64,000 nt of DNA. Source: Bacteroidia bacterium. GTDB lineage: Bacteria > Bacteroidota > Bacteroidia > UKL13-3. The notes under the pieces are model-generated. The model was not told the origin of the DNA and ran no database searches. It saw nothing but the letters and a program-made list of their open reading frames with translations. Position numbers and translations under genes: made by a program. Shown one piece after another: positions 14,460 through 25,035 of the stretch; the first letter of the stretch is position 1; each line of letters opens with the position of its first letter. Location: positions 67,895-131,894 of the forward strand of contig JBAYTR010000010.1 in the NCBI GenBank assembly GCA_041675505.1. The letters are read 5' to 3'.

Positions 14460-15242
14460 TTATTTCCATTTCAGAAGTGTCTTTTCAAAAAGATAAATGA
14501 TTCTCGAAAACAAAAGAGCCAAAAGAATTATGCAGATTACAGCAGCCAAAACCAACGAAACATCATAAGTTCCACCAGCTTTAAAAACCCTATGTCCCAA
14601 ACCTTCGTGGGCTGAAATAAATTCGGCAATGAAGGCACCAAGTAAAGCAAAACTAATGTTCAGTTTAAGCGAATTAAAAAGCCAAACCAATGAAGAAGGC
14701 ACGATTAGTTTTGAAAATATCTGCGTCCGTGATGCTCCAAAGGAGTGAAACAGTTTTATTTGTTGAACATCAACTTGTCTTGCACCTTCATAGGATTGAG
14801 TGATTGCAATTACTACTGTTGAAAGTGCAGCCATTATAACCTTTGCATACATACCAGTTCCAAACCACATTATCATCATAGGTGCAATGGAAAAAATTGG
14901 AATTGCTCCAATTGCAATGATGTAAGGTCTTGTCAAGTCAGCAACTCGTTTTGAATACCAAAGGGAAAGTCCGATTGCTGCACCGCAAATGTTGCCAATT
15001 AGAAAACCATAAATCGCTTCCTGTCCTGTAATAAAAATGTCCCTTGGTAAAATACCATTGGAGATGTTTTCAATCAGCGAATGAAAAACTTTGGATGGAG
15101 AAGAAAACAAAAAGAGTTTCTTTTCAGTAGTTGAAATTACAAACTGCCATAACAGCAAGAAAACTGTTAATGGCAACAAACCCAAAATGATACTTATGAT
15201 TTTTCTTTTCATTGTTCGTCTTGCTTTGGAAGTGATTGCCAC
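14460..15242 (-). CDS. ABC transporter permease, NitT/TauT (SsuC/TauC-like) family
   Basis: 260 aa, multi-TM, with an EAA-loop-like FGASRTQIFSKLIVPSSL. Overlaps the upstream ATPase gene by 34 nt. Confidence 0.8.
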   Translation of the reverse strand: MAITSKARRTMKRKIISIILGLLPLTVFLLLWQFVISTTEKKLFLFSSPSKVFHSLIENISNGILPRDIFITGQEAIYGFLIGNICGAAIGLSLWYSKRVADLTRPYIIAIGAIPIFSIAPMMIMWFGTGMYAKVIMAALSTVVIAITQSYEGARQVDVQQIKLFHSFGASRTQIFSKLIVPSSLVWLFNSLKLNISFALLGAFIAEFISAHEGLGHRVFKAGGTYDVSLVLAAVICIILLALLFSRIIYLFEKTLLKWK

Positions 15243-15970
15243 ATTTCAGTAAAGTATTTAGAAAACTTTTGGTCTTGCTTAACTGAAATTGGACTTCTCT
15301 TTTCTACATCAAAAGTTATCTGTAATTCCTTGAATGTTTCGTTTGGCTTGTGATTAAAAATTATTGTCCTATCGCTTACTGTTATTGCTTCATCAATGTC
15401 GTGAGTAATCAGTAAAACAGTTTTGTGATTCTCTTTTGACAAAGCATGTATTTGTGCTTGTAGTTCAAGCCTCGTGTTGTAATCAATTGCTGAAAATGGT
15501 TCGTCCAAAAGCATTATTTCAGAATCTAACATCAGTGTTCTGATAAGAGCAACTTTTTGTCTTTCACCGCCTGAAAGTTGTGAGGGATAACTATGAACCA
15601 AATTTGAGATGCCAAAGCGTTTCAAATACTGCATTACATTTTCTTTTGTTGAGGAATTTATTTTGCCTTGAATTTCAATACCGACAATTATGTTTTGATA
15701 AACTGTTTTCCAAGGGAGCAATAAATCCTTTTGCATCATGTATGCTATTGCAGTTCTCCTGTCTGCAATGTGGTCAAGTTTTACTTCTCCGCTATATTCA
15801 TTGTCAAGTCCGATTATCAAGTTGAAAAGAGTTGTTTTCCCACAACCATTTGGCCCCAAAATGGAAACAAACTCCCCTGAACGAATAGTGAGATTGAGGT
15901 TTTTAAAAACCTCAACGTTACCCGTTGGAGTGCTAAATGACTTGGTTATGTTTTTTAACTCAATGTTCAT
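15209..15970 (-). CDS. ABC transporter ATP-binding protein (SsuB/TauB-like)
   Basis: Walker A GPNGCGKTT, signature LSGGERQ, Walker B MLLDEPFSAID. Confidence 0.85.
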   Translation of the reverse strand: MNIELKNITKSFSTPTGNVEVFKNLNLTIRSGEFVSILGPNGCGKTTLFNLIIGLDNEYSGEVKLDHIADRRTAIAYMMQKDLLLPWKTVYQNIIVGIEIQGKINSSTKENVMQYLKRFGISNLVHSYPSQLSGGERQKVALIRTLMLDSEIMLLDEPFSAIDYNTRLELQAQIHALSKENHKTVLLITHDIDEAITVSDRTIIFNHKPNETFKELQITFDVEKRSPISVKQDQKFSKYFTEMWQSLPKQDEQ

Positions 15971-17514
15971 TAGTGCTTGACAATTTCCTTTTGTGCATTT
16001 GTAACTCTTGATTTTGCAAATGTCGCTTTAGAATAAATTTGATTAAATATTTTATAGCAATATGTTTCTTCTTTATCTCTCAAGGAAAATTGAGAATTGT
16101 TTTTTTGAATGTTTTGATATTCTTCTTCACTCAAATTGTTGTTTGCAAATTCATGTAGCAAACCCTTTCCTCTTTCAACGCCTCCAATTCCAGCCCCTTC
16201 CATCAAAGTCATTTTCTCTCTCGAATAAATGTAGTCAGGCAATAAATCTTTAAATGCTTCTCTCAAAACAAACTTTGTTGTTGTATCTCCTGTTTTTGTC
16301 TTTGCCACTTTTAAAGACGGATGAATGCTCAAAGCATATTCAACTAAAGTTCTGTCAAGAAAGGGTTCACGAACTTCAACGGCATATTTCATTCCTGTTT
16401 TGTCAACTCTCAAAAGTTGTGTCCTGTATAAATCGTTTAGAAGATTTTTAATTTCATTTTGAAATTCTGTTTCATCAGGAAGGGAAAGAAAATCACCATA
16501 GCCGCCAAATATTTCATCGCTGCCCTCGCCACACAAAACAATTTTGAAACCTTTGTCGTGTGCTAACTCTGCCAATTTCATTGAAAGTAAAGAGCCACGA
16601 ATAGGATTTGGTTCAAATGTCTCAATGGAATAAATCACATCAGGAACATTTTGAAGCAAATTTTCTTTGCTTGTTTTAATATGATGAAACTTCAAATTCA
16701 AATCATTGCAAAGTCGCTTTGCATAAATCACGTCTTCGCCTGAATCTTCACCGACAATTAAAGCTGTAACATCATTGTGATAACTGCAACACAATAAATG
16801 AACTATTGAACTGTCAATGCCACCACTTAAAAAAGTAGCAATAGGCAAATCTGTTTCAACTCTTTTCTTTACAGCCAATTCAACAAGTTCACGAACATTA
16901 TTTGTAATTGTGCTTACTGAATCAGTATTCCATTTTGTGCTTGGCGTTTTATAATACTGGAAAACTCCTTCATTGGTTATGTAGTGTGCTGGTTTAAGTT
17001 CTTCAAATGTTTCTACTTCCAAATCAGTAAAGGATTTCATTTCAGAAGAAATATAAACTACATTCTCACTCTTGCAGTAGAAGAATGGTTTCACTCCAAA
17101 AAAATCTCTTGCTCCGAAAAACTTATTTTGAACGGAATCATAAATTAGAAATGCAAACATTCCTTCTAACTGCTGCAAGAAATTTATTCCGTGTTCTTCA
17201 TAAAGATGAACCAAAACTTCTGTGTCGCAATCTGAAATAAACTTGTGTCCTTTCATTTGCAATTCTGATTTCAAATTTTTGTAGTTGTAAATCTCACCGT
17301 TAAAAACAACTCCTATTGTTTTGTTCTCATTGAAAAAAGGTTGTGTGCCATTTGGTCTGTCAACTATTTTAAGGCGAACACTTCCTAAGATTGAATTTCC
17401 TATTTGAACTTGTTTAGGTGCAGTATCTCCCCGATGCTCAATTTTTTTGAGCATAAACTCCATTTCTGTTTTGCCTTTTGGAGTAGGATTAATAATTGCT
17501 GCGATACCACACAT
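15970..17514 (-). CDS. Asparagine synthase (glutamine-hydrolysing)-family enzyme, AsnB-like
   Basis: 514 aa. MCGIAAII (class II amidotransferase Cys2) plus PP-loop FLSGGIDSS. Its stop and start overlap the ATPase gene by 1 nt. Confidence 0.8.
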   Translation of the reverse strand: MCGIAAIINPTPKGKTEMEFMLKKIEHRGDTAPKQVQIGNSILGSVRLKIVDRPNGTQPFFNENKTIGVVFNGEIYNYKNLKSELQMKGHKFISDCDTEVLVHLYEEHGINFLQQLEGMFAFLIYDSVQNKFFGARDFFGVKPFFYCKSENVVYISSEMKSFTDLEVETFEELKPAHYITNEGVFQYYKTPSTKWNTDSVSTITNNVRELVELAVKKRVETDLPIATFLSGGIDSSIVHLLCCSYHNDVTALIVGEDSGEDVIYAKRLCNDLNLKFHHIKTSKENLLQNVPDVIYSIETFEPNPIRGSLLSMKLAELAHDKGFKIVLCGEGSDEIFGGYGDFLSLPDETEFQNEIKNLLNDLYRTQLLRVDKTGMKYAVEVREPFLDRTLVEYALSIHPSLKVAKTKTGDTTTKFVLREAFKDLLPDYIYSREKMTLMEGAGIGGVERGKGLLHEFANNNLSEEEYQNIQKNNSQFSLRDKEETYCYKIFNQIYSKATFAKSRVTNAQKEIVKH

Positions 17515-17518
17515 TTTA

Positions 17519-18322
17519 TTATTTTTGTTCTTCTTTATTAAAATTTGAAAACCAAGGTCTGCTTCTTATTCCTTTACGAAAAGAGTAAATCTGTAAACTC
17601 GGAAGGTCGGGGGCAATCAATTCTTTTTCTTCATCCGATGTGTATGTGAGAAAAACATTTTGAAAAAAATTCTTTTCTACATACTGCTTTTCAATTTGAT
17701 TCATTGTAATGTAAGCATATGCCGATTCATCAGTTGAATTAAAACGCAAGTCGCCAAAAATTTGATTGTTTGAATATCTGTAAGAATGTTTACCTGCTGA
17801 TTTTTTTAAAAGTTCAAATGATTCTCTACCTTTTAAAAACTCTGGTATGTTATGACTTCCATTCTCATTTATAATTGCATTGATTAATGCATTCATGTCT
17901 TTTAAGTGATGTGATTTTGCAAAAGGCATTAGCACTTCGGACATGAGAACATGTGTGTAATTGAATTCATTTACAACGTTTCTTATCCCTTTGAAATAGC
18001 TTTTGTAATCTTCGGGCTTATAGCCATTAAGCATTGCATGTGTGTCAGTAAAAATTAATGTTAGCTGAGCATCCAATTTGTAATGCTTTTCAATAACTCG
18101 CAGAAAACCGAAAAGATTTAGCAACGCATCAAAGTCGTATTTGTCGGGGTACTTTTTATCGGATGCGCCCCAATATGAAATGAAACGAATATATTTCTTG
18201 TTATGCTTTACTCTTTCATTAACATACTTATCTAACTCCGCAATTTGTTTCTTGCGAACCTCAATCTTTTTTGCTGCTAAAAAAGAGCCGATTGTTTTTC
18301 CGTTTCGCAAATTGCTATTCAT
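17519..18322 (-). CDS. Hypothetical 267-aa protein; possible remote DIT1/PvcA (isonitrile synthase)-like fold
   Basis: The coding call rests on its tight operon position. The function is tentative. YIRFISYWGASDKKYPDKYDFDALLNLFGFLRVIEKHYKLDAQLTLIFTDTHAMLNGY parallels the remembered DIT1_PvcA pattern (PAFPxKS..PDxAE..L..L....I...Y.PGA...I.SDG.VF.DL). LQIYSF...RPWF parallels RLSIH...TPWH. Confidence 0.4.
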   Translation of the reverse strand: MNSNLRNGKTIGSFLAAKKIEVRKKQIAELDKYVNERVKHNKKYIRFISYWGASDKKYPDKYDFDALLNLFGFLRVIEKHYKLDAQLTLIFTDTHAMLNGYKPEDYKSYFKGIRNVVNEFNYTHVLMSEVLMPFAKSHHLKDMNALINAIINENGSHNIPEFLKGRESFELLKKSAGKHSYRYSNNQIFGDLRFNSTDESAYAYITMNQIEKQYVEKNFFQNVFLTYTSDEEKELIAPDLPSLQIYSFRKGIRSRPWFSNFNKEEQK

Positions 18323-20189
18323 TGCGATAAAAATATTTGCTTTCGTGTTTTAGTTTAAACAATTCCCGTGAAGACAAAAAAACAATAACTAAACAAATTA
18401 AGAAACAATAAAAAATATAATTGCCATATTTAATTGTATGTAAAACTTCTTTGTATTCTATAGGGTCGCTATTCGGAACAACTTCTTGCCTTGCAAATTC
18501 ATGTTTCAATTCATCTAATTTTGGAGTTTTAGGATGTAAAATGTGAAACATACTTGATGTAATCTCAAGTAAAATAAATAACGAGCCTATAAAGTAAAGT
18601 AACGTGGGTTTTCTTACATGCTTCCATAATGAACTTTCTATAAACAGTCGAAAGTTTTCAACTTTATTAGTGAACAGTTTTAAGAGATATAAAAAGGGCA
18701 ACAATGGTGTTAAAAATATTCGCCAACCTGCCCACTTTTTTGTGTGTAACGTTTTTCTTTCAAGTTCAAAATAATGCTTTTCATTTTGACGATATTCAGC
18801 TAACAAATCATCAGCTACGAACAAACTGTAATCAATAGTTTGAGGAACAGGTATGCCCTCAGCCCTATATCGCAAAAGCGTTAATTCTTTCAAATCATCT
18901 TTAATCGGATTAGTTTTTGAGTAATACAAATTGCCAATATCTCTCCACTCTCTTAATCTATCTACATAGTATTTAAGAATTTCTTCAAGTGAAAATTTCT
19001 CTTTTTTATTATTGATAAGAAACTGGATATAACTTTTAATAGTTTCATCTGCGATTAAGAGGTTAAGCAATTCGTCTTGGGTATCATCATCATATTTGAG
19101 TTTTGTTTTCAGAAAGTGAATTAAGCCCGTTGTATCGCTTTTCTTTAGATACGAATGAATTCTGTGTAAATTTTTATCAATGCCGTAGAGCAACCCTTTA
19201 AGTTTTTCTGAATTTTCAGGTGCATTATTACCTAAGATGCCCGTAAACATGAAACTTTGATCGTTGTCATACGCTAAGTTTTCTAATTCAATAATTTTTT
19301 TGTTTGCTTCTCCATTATGCTTATCAAGTAAGAAATCAATACTTATAAAATCACATGAGAATGAGACAGAATTATTGCAATAGTCATCGTTATCTACTTC
19401 TTCGTCAATGGTTCCATTATTTTTATATGTTTTTTTACTTACTTTACGAAGTTCATATCCAAAATCTTTTCTTTCTTCTACCAATGTAGATGTAGATGTT
19501 TTGTATTGCTCATAATAGATATGACCAATACAAAATCCTGTTGAAGGAGTATCATAACAGATGATTGATTGAGTAATATTTTCTTTTCCGTATTGAGACG
19601 GAAAATTTTGTGGATTCTTATATAATCTACCTAAGTCATTAGACGAACTAGTTAAATCTCCACTTCCTACAGCCAGAAAAGCAATTTTTGAAACTAATCC
19701 ACCAATAACCTTTGTATTGGTTTTTAATATTTTCTCTTTAAAGAGGTTTACCCCATTCTCTTTAAAGACTAAATTGTTACTATTGTCAACATCTAAACAT
19801 TGTGAAAGATTGAGATTAAACTCTTTATTACAAATATCTTTCTTTGTTTTAATGTCAAGCAAGTCCTGAAACTTTTTAAGTTCTGCTTGTAGCTTGGTGG
19901 CATCGCAATGGTTCAAATAGATAAGATGAGATGGGTCGCAAATGGCTGCGTCTGCTAAACCAAGCAAAACGGAAAAGGTTGCAAATCCATCACCCTTTAA
20001 TTTCTTGCTCTGGTCAAACCTGAAATCATTTTTTGTTCCAATTATAACTACTTCTAATTCCGAAAATGGTGTGTCATGGAAATCATTGCCATAGTATGCA
20101 ACATAAAATGGAAGGTATAATACCGTGTCAGTTGATACGGCAATTTCAAGTTTGTCTTTTGTTCGTATGGAAGAAAATCCTGAATCCAT
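18315..20189 (-). CDS. 624-aa membrane-anchored protein: N-terminal type-2 binding-protein-like domain with no signal peptide, plus three C-terminal TM helices
   Basis: N-terminal VLYLPFYVAYYGNDF and FSVLLGLADAAICDPSHL align with YLIYLPFYIAQEKGFF and ATVLKGEAQFGIGDPVF of the adjacent binding-protein gene. Hydrophobic helices fall at about aa 487-506, 529-551 and 590-607 (nt ~18369-18731). Confidence 0.5.
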   Translation of the reverse strand: MDSGFSSIRTKDKLEIAVSTDTVLYLPFYVAYYGNDFHDTPFSELEVVIIGTKNDFRFDQSKKLKGDGFATFSVLLGLADAAICDPSHLIYLNHCDATKLQAELKKFQDLLDIKTKKDICNKEFNLNLSQCLDVDNSNNLVFKENGVNLFKEKILKTNTKVIGGLVSKIAFLAVGSGDLTSSSNDLGRLYKNPQNFPSQYGKENITQSIICYDTPSTGFCIGHIYYEQYKTSTSTLVEERKDFGYELRKVSKKTYKNNGTIDEEVDNDDYCNNSVSFSCDFISIDFLLDKHNGEANKKIIELENLAYDNDQSFMFTGILGNNAPENSEKLKGLLYGIDKNLHRIHSYLKKSDTTGLIHFLKTKLKYDDDTQDELLNLLIADETIKSYIQFLINNKKEKFSLEEILKYYVDRLREWRDIGNLYYSKTNPIKDDLKELTLLRYRAEGIPVPQTIDYSLFVADDLLAEYRQNEKHYFELERKTLHTKKWAGWRIFLTPLLPFLYLLKLFTNKVENFRLFIESSLWKHVRKPTLLYFIGSLFILLEITSSMFHILHPKTPKLDELKHEFARQEVVPNSDPIEYKEVLHTIKYGNYIFYCFLICLVIVFLSSRELFKLKHESKYFYRNE

Positions 20190-20191
20190 AT

Positions 20192-21205
20192 TTAATTTGT
20201 CTTGGTATCTGAAATAGATTTTTCGGCAAAGGAATTATCTACTGCATCTGATGTTGGTTTCATTTCCTTCATGTCGCCTATATCAACTCTTACTTGTATC
20301 GCTTTCTGCCAAGCTTCATCACTCATTACAGCATGGTCTGGAATTGTTTTATCTGCTACCATTCTTTTTACAGCATTTGCAACAACTGCTTTGTCAAGGT
20401 TGGGGAAAAGTTTTGCTGCAATTTCTGCCGTTCCTGCTTCATCTGTGTGGCAATACTGTAATGCCTTTTCAATTGCGTTTACAAATTTTTGAACAGTTTC
20501 CTTATTGGCGTTTATGTATTCCTCTGTCGTTGTTAAGCCAGTGAAAGCAAATCTTCCATAAAACTGCGGTGAGGAGTAAACAACTTTGTAACCTTTACTT
20601 TCAGCTATTGATGTTCCTGGTTCTAAGTCCATCGCAATATCGGCACTTCCATTTTCAAGTAAAGCCAACTGTGAACCAATTGGGGCTTGAACAATGATTG
20701 TGTTTTTTAATAAATCTCCTCCTTTCATGAGTGTCTTTTTCATCAAAGCGTAATTTGTTGACGGGTCGGGGAATGTTCCAACTTTCAAACCAGCCAAATC
20801 ACCAGGCTGTTCTATGGTTTTGATGTTATCCTTGTTTGTTACACCCCAAATTGTTACTCCGTCAACGATGGAACCAATTACTTTTCCTTTTGCTCCTTTC
20901 TCTCGTGATATGGCAGTGAATACAGGGTCGCCAATTCCAAATTGTGCTTCGCCTTTCAAAACGGTTGCAAAAACCTGGTCGTCATTACCTGAAAACTTTA
21001 CAGTAATTTCAAGTCCTTCGTCTTTGAAAAAACCCTTCTCCTGTGCAATGTAGAAAGGTAGGTAAATTAGATACTTCTCTTGTCCCCACTGCGCTACTAT
21101 TACTTTGGTGACTTCGGTGGTTTTTGGCTTTTCAGTGTTGCATGAATTGCATCCTCCCAAAATGATTGTGAGAACCAGTAATGCTGCTAAAACTATTTTA
21201 TTCAT
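20192..21205 (-). CDS. ABC substrate-binding lipoprotein, NMT1/THI5/SsuA-like
   Basis: 337 aa with MNKIVLAALLVLTIILGGC lipobox and LPFYIAQEKGFFKDEGLEITV, typical of NMT1/SsuA-type binding proteins. Confidence 0.75.
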   Translation of the reverse strand: MNKIVLAALLVLTIILGGCNSCNTEKPKTTEVTKVIVAQWGQEKYLIYLPFYIAQEKGFFKDEGLEITVKFSGNDDQVFATVLKGEAQFGIGDPVFTAISREKGAKGKVIGSIVDGVTIWGVTNKDNIKTIEQPGDLAGLKVGTFPDPSTNYALMKKTLMKGGDLLKNTIIVQAPIGSQLALLENGSADIAMDLEPGTSIAESKGYKVVYSSPQFYGRFAFTGLTTTEEYINANKETVQKFVNAIEKALQYCHTDEAGTAEIAAKLFPNLDKAVVANAVKRMVADKTIPDHAVMSDEAWQKAIQVRVDIGDMKEMKPTSDAVDNSFAEKSISDTKTN

Positions 21206-21261
21206 TTTGACGGTTTTAATTGCTATTTTATATTGTAAAGATAGTTATTCACTCGATAAAT

Positions 21262-22788
21262 TCAACAATTGCTTCCCTTCTCAAAAAGTGTTTTCCAAAG
21301 GAATGTATCAAACAATTGTGCTAAGTTGTAAGTCAAAAACAAAAATAAAGTTCCTCCCAATAGTATTGCCAAAAACCATTTCCAAAGGTTGCTGTAAATT
21401 TTGAGTTTGCCATCAATGAATGCTACATCAGCATTGAATTCTTTATCATTATTAAGGATTCTCTGAATGTCTTCTTTTTCTAAAAGGTCAGTGTAGCGTT
21501 CTTTCAAATTTGTGTAGCTGTCAACGAATCTTTTGCGTTGCTCTTTCACTTCCCACTTTGCTACTAAGTAATAAAGGAATGAGCCGAACAAAAAAACAAT
21601 TGAAAGAACTGCTGTGTCAAGTGTAAACACATTTACAAAATCTCCATTGCCCAAAACTTTTATTGCGATTGCAGAAAAGTAAAAAGTGATTAGCGCCAAA
21701 GAACTTTTTTGAAAACCACTTGCAAATGTTTCAATGACTTTGTTTGCTCTGTTGTTGAAGTCAAGCAACTGGTCAGAAATTTTATTTCTGATTTCAATGT
21801 ATTGCTTGATGTTCTGCTTCTCGTAAACTTTGTAACTTGATTGAATAGATTGAAATGGATGCCCTTTCAATTCTAATTCACCACTATTTTCAAAGTGAAG
21901 TGAAATAATGTTTCTGGCTAAACCAATTTTATCATTGAGGTTTCCGCCACAATAAACCCAATTGTATATATTGAAATATTCTTTCGTTCCATCTATCGGC
22001 AATGCTTTTACATCAACTTTTCCTTTGATTGATTTATAACCGTTGATTTTAAATTCAAGTTCGTTGGCTTTTAGCGAAGTAATGTCAAACAAATAAACAA
22101 CGGAAAGCACAACAGCATAATGATTGAAAAGCAAACACAGCTTGCTGTGTTTTGCATTTTCAATTTGCAACTGAAAATCATCAGGCGTTAAGTTGTGTTC
22201 TTCAATGTTGGTGTAATTACTTGCTGAAAGAATGCTATCAAGGCGTTTATGCCTGTCAGCAAATGTTTGAGTAGGTGTGGTAGCACCTATTTGTGTAAAG
22301 AAAATATTTGCTGTATTGAATGGCTTGTCAAGATTCAACACTTTGAAGTTTACAAAAGGTGTGTTTGATAAAACACGATTGAAAACCGCATACGCTTCTG
22401 CTACTGACAAACTTTCAAGTGTTGCTGTGAAGATTTCTAAATCATATATAGAAATATTGTTTGAAATATTTCCTTTAGTGATTTTGAAGGTTGCTGTGAT
22501 TGGTTCGCCTTCCTGATGCAAATATTCCTTATCAAGTTCAGTTTTGAAATCGGTAAAATTTGAACTGGTTGAATAAAATGATTTTGGGTCGGCTTCTCCA
22601 AATTTGATTGTGAATGTTAATTGGTCGTTAGGCTCTAAAAAGTTGTAGGCGGTTTGAATGCTTGCAACCTCTGTCGATGAAAAGTTTGTTGCTGACAATT
22701 CACAAATAAATTCTTTGTCATTCTCTGAAACAGTTGTTTGAGAATAAGTAGAGAAAAAAGAGTGAATGAATTTATCAGCAAATTGCAT
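21262..22788 (-). CDS. Hypothetical 508-aa protein: ~360-aa unrecognised soluble domain plus a C-terminal 2TM-linker-1TM anchor
   Basis: No signal peptide. Hydrophobic helices fall at about aa 362-380, 390-411 and 467-490 (nt ~21319-21705). The start ATG overlaps the upstream stop (TAATG at 22786-22790). Confidence 0.5.
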   Translation of the reverse strand: MQFADKFIHSFFSTYSQTTVSENDKEFICELSATNFSSTEVASIQTAYNFLEPNDQLTFTIKFGEADPKSFYSTSSNFTDFKTELDKEYLHQEGEPITATFKITKGNISNNISIYDLEIFTATLESLSVAEAYAVFNRVLSNTPFVNFKVLNLDKPFNTANIFFTQIGATTPTQTFADRHKRLDSILSASNYTNIEEHNLTPDDFQLQIENAKHSKLCLLFNHYAVVLSVVYLFDITSLKANELEFKINGYKSIKGKVDVKALPIDGTKEYFNIYNWVYCGGNLNDKIGLARNIISLHFENSGELELKGHPFQSIQSSYKVYEKQNIKQYIEIRNKISDQLLDFNNRANKVIETFASGFQKSSLALITFYFSAIAIKVLGNGDFVNVFTLDTAVLSIVFLFGSFLYYLVAKWEVKEQRKRFVDSYTNLKERYTDLLEKEDIQRILNNDKEFNADVAFIDGKLKIYSNLWKWFLAILLGGTLFLFLTYNLAQLFDTFLWKTLFEKGSNC

Positions 22789-23825
22789 TAGCTATTGCCG
22801 TTTTGTCTGTTGCTGAAATATTGATAGCCTTGTTCCGATTTGATTTTCACATATCTTGTTCCGTCTGCATCTTTTTCCGCTGTGATTATTGTTTCAAGGT
22901 TCGGAATATCTTCTTTCAAGTGCAAATCAATTTGGCTTGTCAAGGGGATAGTGTTTAGAAATTTTGCCCTAATCTTTGCCTTTACAATCGTGAACTGTTC
23001 GTCAAAAGGTGTTCTTGGTTTTGATGGCAATTGTCGGATTTGAGTTTTGATTTCTGCAACATCAAGGTTGGAATCGAAGGGAGTGTAGTTTCCAATTGCT
23101 GTGTCCAAATACTCTTGCATGTCAAAATTGTCGTTGGCTCTGAAATAGCGAACGGTGCTATTACGCAAATGCAAATAATCTTGTGGGTGTTTCTTTTTCA
23201 GTTTTGTAAATATGCCTTTGTCAATTGCTTCAAAAGCATTTTCTGTATTGTCCTCGTCTGAATAAACTTTGGTGAGTTCTAAAAAATCTTTCCACCAATA
23301 ATGAGAAAGGTTTGGATTGGTGTCATACACCAAAACATTAGTTACAGTTTGGTCGCTGTTTAGCGAACAAACAAATGCTTTGAAAACCTTTTTCTTTAAT
23401 GGAAGTCCTCTTGAAATAGTAAAATTTATTTCGTTTAAGAAATCGCTGTGGTCTGCTTTACAGATTACAAGTTTGTTGACGCTGTTTTCTGTTACCAATG
23501 CTTGAACAACAATTCCCTTTTGAATCTCAACTCCAAGTTTCAACATTTTTGCTTGTGCCTCTTGCTCTTTCTTCAAAAGTCGTGTTACTATTGTTGATGC
23601 AATTGCAGGAAATTCTTCACCTGCAATAATTTTCGTAATCTGTCCTCTTACTTCTGTTGTGTCGCTGTCAAACTTGAAGTTTCTACCACTGCTGCCTGTC
23701 GTAATGAGATTTACCAGTCCTTGCAAGTATGTGTTGAAGTCAGCACCATAAATTGATTGCTCAATTGATTCAACCGCTTGTTCATGAATGTCAACCTTAA
23801 ATATTTGTATGGCTGTTATGTCCAT
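22788..23825 (-). CDS. NdpA/YejK (Pfam NA37)-like nucleoid-associated protein
   Basis: The ORF track starts at GTG 23891, but ATG 23825 (MDITAIQIFKVDIH...) is the likelier start. The layout (EEFPAIASTIVTRLLKKEQ, IQKGIVVQALV, VICKADHSDFL, LVYDTNPNLSHYWWKDFLEL) matches my recollection of the NA37 family. No HMM search was run. Confidence 0.5.
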   Translation of the reverse strand: MDITAIQIFKVDIHEQAVESIEQSIYGADFNTYLQGLVNLITTGSSGRNFKFDSDTTEVRGQITKIIAGEEFPAIASTIVTRLLKKEQEAQAKMLKLGVEIQKGIVVQALVTENSVNKLVICKADHSDFLNEINFTISRGLPLKKKVFKAFVCSLNSDQTVTNVLVYDTNPNLSHYWWKDFLELTKVYSDEDNTENAFEAIDKGIFTKLKKKHPQDYLHLRNSTVRYFRANDNFDMQEYLDTAIGNYTPFDSNLDVAEIKTQIRQLPSKPRTPFDEQFTIVKAKIRAKFLNTIPLTSQIDLHLKEDIPNLETIITAEKDADGTRYVKIKSEQGYQYFSNRQNGNS

Positions 23826-24303
23826 GTTGTATATTTTAAAATGTGAAAAATTGTTGGTTAACGGGTGCTGATAAAGCGTTGGCGATTGCACACTTTTGAT
23901 TTCGCCTTTGGGTTGGCTTGTACGTGAGCTGCAAATGCAAATGTGTACTGGTGTTTTTTGTTTTCCAGCTGAAGCGTTTACAATTCAAGGAGGTGTCGTT
24001 GGTGTCAAGTTTTGTCAAAAAGTTCATTTTTCATCTGTCAGTTTAATGTTAACACTGTTGCCATAGGGTTTCCGGCAGCTTTTTTATATGCGAAGGTTTG
24101 CCTGGTTTTGTAAATATATCAATTTGCTCATAACTCTTCAAAAAGGGGGTTGTTTTTTGAATACTTTGTGATGTAAATCGCTTTGAAAATCTTGGCCAAT
24201 TAGGCCACGGGAATTTGCAAGACAGGTGAACAGGTTAGGTTGCATAGCATATTGGTTTTCAACGGCAAATTAGAAGGTTTTTTATTACTGTGCAAATTTA
24301 TTA

Positions 24304-24410
24304 TTGTGCTCGCATTGGGAGACTGCTTCTCCCGATAGCCATCGGGTCTCGGTGGCATTGCTTTTTGGGGTGCCGCGCTAGGCTCAATAAGACGTTTCTT
24401 TTTTGAAGAG
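24304..24410. repeat. Intergenic repeat unit, copy 1 (starts TTGTGCTCGCATTGGGAGACTGC, ends GACGTTTCTTTTTTGA)
   Basis: Both ends are shared with the unit at 24514..24612. The interior contains nested hairpins (GAGAC...GTCTC and CCCGAT/ATCGGG). Confidence 0.5.
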
Positions 24411-24513
24411 AGATAGACTTTAAGCACATCGTCTTTGCGATGAACTTCTGGGTAGTGTGTTGGGTAGTCAAGAAGCAAACTTTAGTTCAGGGAAGCAACC
24501 TCCTATTACAACT

Positions 24514-24612
24514 TTGTGCTCACATTGGGGGACTGCCACGGGCTCTCATCACACAGGCTAAGCTTCGCCCTCGCAGTGACGTTGGTTTTGACAGTGACGT
24601 TCTTTTTTGAGT
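24514..24612. repeat. Intergenic repeat unit, copy 2 (starts TTGTGCTCACATTGGGGGACTGC, ends GACGTTCTTTTTTGA)
   Basis: 21/23 identity with copy 1 at the 5' end and a conserved 3' end. AGTGACGTT occurs twice internally. Confidence 0.5.
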
Positions 24613-24627
24613 GCCTTTGAAGTAATG

Positions 24628-25035
24628 TTACTTCATCTCCTGGCACAACTCAATCAGTACTCCGTTGGTGGCTTTGGGGTGCAGGAAACAAATGAGTTTA
24701 TTATCAGCACCGCGCTTGGGTGTTTCATGGATAAATTGAAATCCGGCTGCTTCTAAACGGGTTATTTCTGCTTCAATGTCTTCTACATCAAATGCAATGT
24801 GGTGTATGCCCTCGCCTTTTTTCTCAATAAATTTTGCAATGGCACTGTCGGCTGAGGTGGCTTGCAGCAACTCTACTTTGCTTTCTCCGGTTTTAAAAAA
24901 AGCGGTGATTACGTGTTCGCTTTCCACGCCCTCTTCTTTGTAGCAGGGTGTTCCCAAAAGTGCGGCAAACAGGCTTTTGGATGCTTCTATATCTTTAACG
25001 GCTATGCCCAGGTGTTCAATCTTGCGTAAATTCAT
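24628..25035 (-). CDS. Methylmalonyl-CoA epimerase / VOC (glyoxalase)-family protein
   Basis: Likely start MNLRKIEHLGIAVKD at 25035. HLGIAV...GEGIHHIAFDV...LHPKATNGVLIELCQ is the typical epimerase pattern. Confidence 0.75.
   Translation of the reverse strand: MNLRKIEHLGIAVKDIEASKSLFAALLGTPCYKEEGVESEHVITAFFKTGESKVELLQATSADSAIAKFIEKKGEGIHHIAFDVEDIEAEITRLEAAGFQFIHETPKRGADNKLICFLHPKATNGVLIELCQEMK

Follow-up and report, generated by a model that had tools for sequence, protein, structure and literature searches.

The window analyzed here is a 64,000-nucleotide (nt) stretch of a Bacteroidia bacterium genome (Bacteroidota, GTDB lineage UKL13-3; assembly GCA_041675505.1, contig JBAYTR010000010.1, positions 67,895 to 131,894). 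On its minus strand lie two genes, here called A and B, that a preliminary description made from the sequence alone had singled out as a candidate conflict or defense module: a putative DNA-binding protein and a membrane-anchored partner (Table 1). Both open reading frames (ORFs) are present as claimed, and so is the overlap of the stop codon of A with the start codon of B. The pair lies in a stretch of low guanine-plus-cytosine (GC) content, another feature that had been described correctly: GC is 31-38% across ~14-24 kb of the window versus 42-49% in the flanks, climbing to 43% past 24 kb. We regard the pair as a well-supported candidate defense module.

The longer of two possible forms of gene A is unsupported, because its homologs are 338-345 amino acids (aa) long and align from the peptide MDITAIQ; the 5' extension is probably not translated.

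Table 1. Features of the A-B locus (positions within the window)
Feature	Positions	Strand	Description
Gene A	22788..23825	minus	345 aa from ATG 23825; divergent YejK/NA37-fold protein, putative DNA-binding sensor
Possible 5' extension of gene A	23826..23891	minus	GTG 23891 start; 367-aa form in the ORF list
A/B stop-start overlap, TAATG	22786..22790	minus	Read off the sequence; TAA of A and ATG of B share one base
Gene B	21262..22788	minus	ORF; 508-aa membrane-anchored partner, putative effector
B residues 1-310	21859..22788	minus	Acidic cytoplasmic alpha/beta domain, most variable part
B residues 362-412, transmembrane (TM) hairpin (TM1 362-380, TM2 390-412)	21553..21705	minus	Hydropathy; model helices 311-379 and 390-433
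B residues 413-466, conserved post-TM2 helix	21391..21552	minus	Conserved columns in homolog alignments
B residues 467-490, third TM helix	21319..21390	minus	Hydropathy; model helix 446-493
Intergenic DNA upstream of gene A, ~800 nt	23826..24627	minus	Presumed to include the promoter and to mark the border of the low-GC stretch

Protein A Is a Divergent YejK-Fold Protein

What kind of protein does gene A encode? The Pfam model NA37 (PF04245) matches residues 46-286 of protein A at E=1.4e-4 and 21.8 bits, under its gathering cutoff of 24.6 bits, and is matched at E<0.01 by just 8 of 64 homologs in the A family (best E=8e-7); ten distant A partners from other phyla gave no match in a Pfam NA37 search. 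Profile-to-profile alignment of the A family was made with a YejK profile consisting of Escherichia coli YejK, two canonical NA37 proteins, and DS-1A, a component of a known defense pair considered below. Here hhalign returned a 96% probability of homology (E=4.6e-9) over 257 columns, spanning A residues 46-329. The four peptide segments from which the preliminary description had recognized an NdpA/YejK protein all occur in the translation of A, where they fall on conserved NA37 blocks of this alignment, and the NA37 homology that it proposed is borne out at the profile level. The next-ranked profile matches for the A family after YejK were to CENP-N, and the paper describing the YejK structure reports an equally weak CENP-N resemblance for YejK itself. 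Protein A has the two-domain fold of YejK, at 13% identity to the E. coli protein (structure 9be2). Because a weak NA37 match is joined by profile-level homology to YejK, we assign A as a divergent YejK-fold protein.

The dimeric clamp formed by YejK has a basic pore, and the DNA-binding residues of YejK form two triads, R173/R176/K177 in the N-domain and R276/R280/K284 in the C-domain; loss of the N-domain triad abolishes DNA binding. On the hhalign alignment, which is uncertain at 13-17% identity, R276 and R280 of the C-domain triad correspond to K282 and R286 of protein A, and K284 is placed at a gap next to K288. At the N-domain triad, a lysine in the family consensus matches at one of three positions only (position 175). 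DNA binding by protein A is plausible.

Protein B Belongs to a Large Family of Membrane-Anchored Proteins

Searches of protein B against Pfam, NCBIfam, and PDB sequences yielded no usable match, a Pfam search of 95 distant relatives yielded no consistent one, and a cluster look-up for distant representatives returned almost no names. A tblastn search of phage and plasmid collections with B found no match; B does match phrog_32650 (E=4e-45). The family is large, with 1076 clusters (50% identity) at E<=1e-3 and 701 at E<=1e-30, and among the best 150 of the 1076 clusters most members are ~480-570 aa long, with a few fragments among them. Kinship of B to A or to NA37 was considered and rejected on comparison.

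In an AlphaFold2 model of B (mean predicted local distance difference test score, 85.2), an alpha/beta domain extends to about residue 300 and leads through a long helix into TM1; a short loop, TM2, a helical stretch of ~55 residues, and a third TM helix follow. Hydropathy maxima lie at aa 362-380, 383-412, and 467-493, and the model places long helices at matching positions, so that both lines agree on the C-terminal anchor—two TM helices, a linker, and a third TM helix—that had been read from the sequence. The N-domain is acidic, with an isoelectric point (pI) of 5.13 in the window, a family median of 4.93, and values <6 in 99% of 95 representatives.

Conservation is uneven along the protein. 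The first 200 residues are the least conserved portion, and residues 261-466, which run from the end of the soluble domain through the long helix and TM hairpin to the post-TM2 helix, are the most conserved. Among 66 homologs the post-TM2 helix holds 12 invariant columns (W412, E413, Q417, R420, F421, Y425, K429, R431, Y432, D434, D440, and D448); among the 95 distant representatives Y425 is invariant and R420, K429, R431, D434, D440, and D448 are nearly so. The B proteins of a Vibrio (locus L054, 9677-11086) and an Arcobacter (L059, 9626-11077) stop short of the third TM helix. That helix may not be essential, or else the two copies may have been cut short.

A and B Form a Strictly Ordered, Co-Diverging Pair

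How tightly are the two genes linked across genomes? A scan of one genome per species found 56 B loci, at which A was sought with our own ORF calls and family hidden Markov models (HMMs). Bacteroidota predominate, and the other hosts are Verrucomicrobia, Firmicutes, Desulfobacterota, Gamma- and Betaproteobacteria, Arcobacter, a Tenericutes bin, and a Lokiarchaeota bin. The order A-then-B is found also in E. coli, Acinetobacter baumannii, Providencia, Pantoea, and six IMG/VR viral contigs. Wherever upstream DNA exists, an A-family gene stands immediately upstream of B on the same strand, at ~68 loci in at least six phyla and without exception; A is absent only at loci whose contig begins inside B. 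Because a member of the A family precedes every examined B that has upstream DNA, the pairing is not due to chance, and the synteny on which the preliminary description had staked its proposal is present well beyond Bacteroidota.

The junction between the genes is equally regular and bears out, across phyla, the translational coupling that the preliminary description proposed. A and B overlap by 1 or 4 nt at 29 of 54 intact homologous loci, and nearly all junctions are within 25 nt. The two proteins have also diverged together, as pairwise distances among A proteins correlate with those among B proteins (r=0.89, Mantel p=0.001). Within the locus set, the nearest relative is 86% (A) and 76% (B) identical to the window's proteins and has different neighbors; at the far end, E. 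coli B retains 35% identity to B of the window across 315 residues (E=2e-57).

Several loci depart from the simple two-gene form. In a Prevotellaceae bin (L036, 10030-11070) and an Akkermansia bin (L037, 11281-12318) a third gene makes an A-B-NA37 arrangement; it encodes a canonical NA37 protein (Pfam E=4e-35 and 2e-31, respectively) and overlaps the 3' end of B. An intact pair on a 4.4-kb contig binned as Promethearchaeota (Lokiarchaeota; L026) has either been transferred into archaea or been binned wrongly. Decayed copies occur at L012, L027, L028, and L061. In Dyadobacter luteus gene A is interrupted by a ~1.1-kb insert, and A and/or B carry frameshifts in one Myroides genome, a Flavobacteriales bin, and Allopusillimonas.

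The Pair Is Mobile and Frequently Neighbors Defense Genes

Which genes surround the pair elsewhere? At ~49 loci the three genes flanking the pair most closely on either side, together 287 proteins, were searched against PADLOC. Strong matches comprised HamA and HamB (Hachiman), GajA and GajB (Gabija), SduA (Shedu), and AbiEii; type I, II, and IIG restriction-modification; and DrmMII, mad2, PDC-S23, S27, S28, M30, and M41. As a rough external yardstick, known defense systems lie within 10 kb of 4.2% of stand-alone nucleoid-associated protein (NAP) genes in a published survey (PANGU; bioRxiv 10.64898/2026.04.06.716658). Individual loci, some of them defense islands, illustrate the association: SRA-HNH, NERD, and Shedu genes are close by in Niabella, GmrSD is close by in Myroides, and in Pantoea GmrSD_N, HEPN, and SduA_C genes accompany the pair on an integrative element with integrase and relaxase. 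At two loci many of the neighbors are hypothetical genes.

Mobile elements are a second recurring setting. The A. baumannii pair has a prophage lysis cassette on one side and an integrase on the other, and the pair is present on the six IMG/VR viral contigs. In Providencia (L070, 2813-12811) it lies within a P4-like element, with the primase on one side and a Psu-like gene on the other; this element encodes integrase, derepression protein, Toprim primase, Psu-like, and Ogr/Delta proteins, and the site is not obviously the same as the psu-int hotspot known in E. coli P4-like satellites. E. coli carries the pair in 30 of 5426 complete genomes. In strain NCTC86 (L067, 7995-17863) it resides in an island between ybaA and the signal recognition particle RNA gene ffs, together with a recombinase, four hypothetical genes, an integrase fragment, and IS3. 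The NCTC86 proteins are WP_032082908.1 (A) and WP_170228383.1 (B; full-length, 572 aa), which the Prokaryotic Genome Annotation Pipeline labels in E. coli as "nucleoid-associated protein" and "hypothetical protein." Because its surroundings vary from genome to genome, the pair moves as a cassette.

In the window itself, the upstream neighbors are a glyoxalase-family gene and an iron-sulfur (Fe-S) assembly gene. The intergenic DNA upstream of A contains no convincing ORF, and a sigma-70 scan there did no better than on shuffled sequence. An Rfam scan of 21000-24700 gave no match, and promoter, terminator, and transfer RNA scans around the pair were uninformative, with no terminator found. Within the same intergenic stretch, the 21-nt motif CAGTCYCCCAATGYGAGCACA occurs as two direct-repeat copies on the minus strand (24305-24325 and 24515-24535, 210 nt apart); it is found nowhere else in the window, and no such copies are expected by chance. 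Downstream, the rest of the low-GC stretch is filled by an unrelated six-gene operon on the minus strand (14460-21205), encoding an NMT1/THI5-type lipoprotein binding protein, a 624-aa membrane protein of unknown family, a weakly DIT1/PvcA-like protein, an AsnB-type amidotransferase, an ATP-binding cassette (ABC) ATPase, and a permease. This operon may be a small transport and biosynthesis island of its own.

The Pair Resembles Two Recently Validated Defense Systems

Has this design been seen before? The preliminary description knew of no described system of such composition, a statement that no longer holds, since two were validated in 2026. The first is PANGU (April 2026), a group of systems in which YejK-like NAPs are paired with effectors (bioRxiv 10.64898/2026.04.06.716658). 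PANGU type II consists of a NAP, Pag2A, and of Pag2B, in which an N-terminal acidic "DNA-mimic" domain is joined to a TM domain at the C terminus; the system defends E. coli with an abortive infection phenotype, and both genes are required (bioRxiv 10.64898/2026.04.06.716658). The type II NAP quits the nucleoid upon T4 infection, T4 escapes through mutations in EndoII (denA), and no construct, single-gene ones included, was toxic (bioRxiv 10.64898/2026.04.06.716658). Type II systems cross phyla, are frequently linked to defense genes, and are sporadic in Bacteroidota (bioRxiv 10.64898/2026.04.06.716658).

The A-B pair shares this organization, a likeness of A and B to Pag2A and Pag2B that is drawn from their published description: a two-gene operon in which a YejK-like NAP precedes a non-NAP partner, and a partner with an acidic N-domain—acidity alone being no proof of DNA mimicry—followed by three C-terminal TM helices. 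The PANGU survey required an NdpA/NA37-type HMM match at E<1e-10, a NAP of at least 300 aa, and a two-gene operon with a gap <40 nt (bioRxiv 10.64898/2026.04.06.716658). Protein A is long enough at 345 aa and the TAATG junction is well within the gap limit, but with the Pfam NA37 model as a proxy for the survey HMM the A family would probably fail the threshold (1.4e-4 for A itself, 8e-7 for the best family member). Because A reaches only that value with NA37 and its distant partners gave no match, the A-B family may lie outside the published PANGU clusters. A literature search for the E. coli pair surfaced only the PANGU preprint, and that not through the accessions of the pair.

The second system is DS-1, a validated E. 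coli defense pair (WP_000355468.1 and WP_000150292.1) found by DefensePredictor (Science 2026, PMC13092281). DS-1A combines a zinc ribbon with an NA37 domain (PMC13092281), the latter matched strongly (HHpred E=2e-35). DS-1B is a protein of 404 aa with an acidic N-domain (pI 5.2) and a hydrophobic hairpin at aa 269-307; as read from its sequence, a long helical stretch then follows, and the C-terminal segment is hydrophobic. This is the layout of B, which is ~100 residues longer; the N-terminal zinc ribbon of DS-1A is missing from A. A direct comparison of A with DS-1A was not significant, although the four-sequence NA37 profile to which the A family aligns with 96% probability includes DS-1A. 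The same study lists the E. coli A ortholog WP_032082908.1 as a "Predicted novel defense gene" with a mean log-odds of 7.97 (Table S10; PMC13092281), and we did not find it among the units that DefensePredictor tested.

Two further comparisons set the pair apart from better-known proteins. YejK is an abundant gene that stands alone on the chromosome; A, by contrast, is in every case linked to B and lies in accessory DNA. The preliminary description had likened the pair to Kiwa, and what survives of this is a loose analogy, a membrane protein and a soluble partner encoded by two genes, as gene order and folds differ. KwaB, the Kiwa partner, binds DNA. Membership in Kiwa was rejected: neither protein matched a PADLOC Kiwa model or, at E<=1, Pfam DUF4868.

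A Candidate Abortive-Infection Module and Its Rivals

What might the pair do? The reading that we favor, at about even confidence, is that A and B constitute a self-contained, horizontally mobile two-gene anti-phage module acting by abortive infection, with a nucleoid protein as sensor and a membrane protein as effector. In healthy cells protein A, a YejK-fold DNA clamp, would sit on the chromosome, and B would be anchored in the inner membrane by its three C-terminal helices, with the acidic N-domain of ~310 residues facing the cytoplasm. Degradation of host DNA by a phage nuclease would release A, and freed A would dock on the acidic, DNA-like domain of B. Docking would activate the TM hairpin, conserved helix, and third TM helix of B, which would then damage the membrane and stop the infected cell before phage release. 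The DNA binding of A, its binding to B, the trigger, the membrane damage, and the defense phenotype are what we infer by analogy with PANGU type II and DS-1.

Several observations weigh against this reading. For A, the N-domain triad R173/R176/K177 aligns with N172/H175/Y176 in the window's protein, an alignment that is uncertain at 13-17% identity, and the protein is acidic overall (pI 5.95). For B, a Foldseek search of the model against the PDB found no structural relative at E<=0.001. The label "DNA mimic" for its N-domain is weakly supported, because an acidic pI is common in cytoplasmic domains. Homology of B to DS-1B was not found by hhalign (probability 0.3%) or by hmmsearch with family profiles (E>=0.027 in a two-sequence search). 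SLATT two-TM effector domains, which the preliminary description had raised as a possible match, resemble B in having a TM hairpin and then a helix, and the window's B does match RTasSLATT (E=0.005, aa 361-446) and TIGR04402 (E=0.04, same region) weakly; these matches are not reproduced across the family, where just 2-3 of 95 representatives match (E<0.05) and none matches Pfam SLATT, and we rejected the assignment at the level of the family. As for context, the defense reading of the preliminary description is supported at homologous loci, with Hachiman, Gabija, Shedu, AbiE, restriction-modification, and PADLOC candidate genes as well as mobile elements nearby, but not in the window, where no known defense gene adjoins the pair and the neighbors are the ABC-transport and amidotransferase operon and housekeeping genes. 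The neighbor survey tallies families rather than loci and has no matched control, and one Flavobacterium copy is surrounded by housekeeping genes.

Four rivals deserve weighing, in descending order defense with a different trigger, service to mobile elements, a nucleoid-to-membrane tether, and a part in the downstream ABC operon. The first, unlikely in our judgment yet the most serious, keeps the defensive role and changes its logic: A would itself recognize a phage protein or the phage DNA as it enters, instead of being freed from a damaged nucleoid, and B would sense membrane events or merely execute, nearer to Kiwa. Nothing else in the pair varies as much as the first 200 residues of B, as one would expect of an arms-race surface; the YejK N-domain DNA-binding triad appears not to be kept in A; and the canonical NA37 gene that follows B in Prevotellaceae and Akkermansia hints that A and a true NAP differ in role. 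Kiwa-like logic finds no echo in KwaA or KwaB/DUF4868 matches, however, by PADLOC or by Pfam, and in the sole systems of such architecture studied by experiment, the NAP relocates once the genome has been damaged in an EndoII-dependent manner.

Might the pair instead serve the elements that carry it, through toxin-antitoxin-like addiction or through superinfection or entry exclusion on behalf of prophages, satellites, and integrative elements? We consider this somewhat less probable again. Many copies have no recognizable mobile-element genes within 10 kb, the absence of toxicity in PANGU constructs argues against a classical toxin-antitoxin for that architecture, and the accessory slots of prophages and satellites are known reservoirs of defense systems. 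The carriage by a prophage, a P4-like element, integrase/relaxase islands, and viral contigs is nevertheless what this explanation would lead one to expect, as are the assignment of both proteins to PHROG families and the existence of decayed copies.

A housekeeping or accessory tether, in which A binds DNA and B anchors A so as to organize the chromosome or the element, is improbable: the YejK fold of A, the membrane anchor and cytoplasmic domain of B, and the tight coupling of the genes would fit it, but the distribution is patchy and strain-specific (as in E. coli), neighborhoods vary even among close relatives, and the pair has a low-GC island location and frequent defense-gene neighbors. 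Least credible by far is that the pair heads the downstream operon and serves transport or biosynthesis, as the common strand, the 56 nt from the B stop to the next start, the shared low-GC stretch, and the lack of a detected terminator might suggest, since that operon is shared by 0 of ~68 other loci, the closest relative included.

A Possible Divergent Branch of Nucleoid-Protein-Guarded Effectors

A nucleoid protein paired with a membrane effector is thus a design already described in 2026, in PANGU type II and DS-1; what appears to be new here, judged from sequence comparison, is a divergent sensor branch and an effector family without detectable DS-1B homology. With confidence slightly short of even, we suggest that the A-B pair represents a separate lineage of nucleoid-protein-guarded membrane effectors, its sensor too divergent for NA37 surveys and its effector unrelated in sequence to DS-1B and possibly to Pag2B. 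Were this so, the three-gene form would suggest that B-type effectors can be wired to more than one NAP paralog, and the trigger may differ from genome degradation of the EndoII type.

If the favored reading of the pair as an abortive-infection module is true, it would add a sensor branch that NA37-based surveys may miss, along with a very large unannotated family of membrane effectors distributed in Bacteroidota, Proteobacteria, Firmicutes, Verrucomicrobia, and Desulfobacterota and carried on prophages and satellites. The orthologous pair of E. coli NCTC86 makes the idea directly testable, and the A-B family offers a natural comparison for learning which features matter in such systems—the fold, the acidic docking domain, or the TM module.

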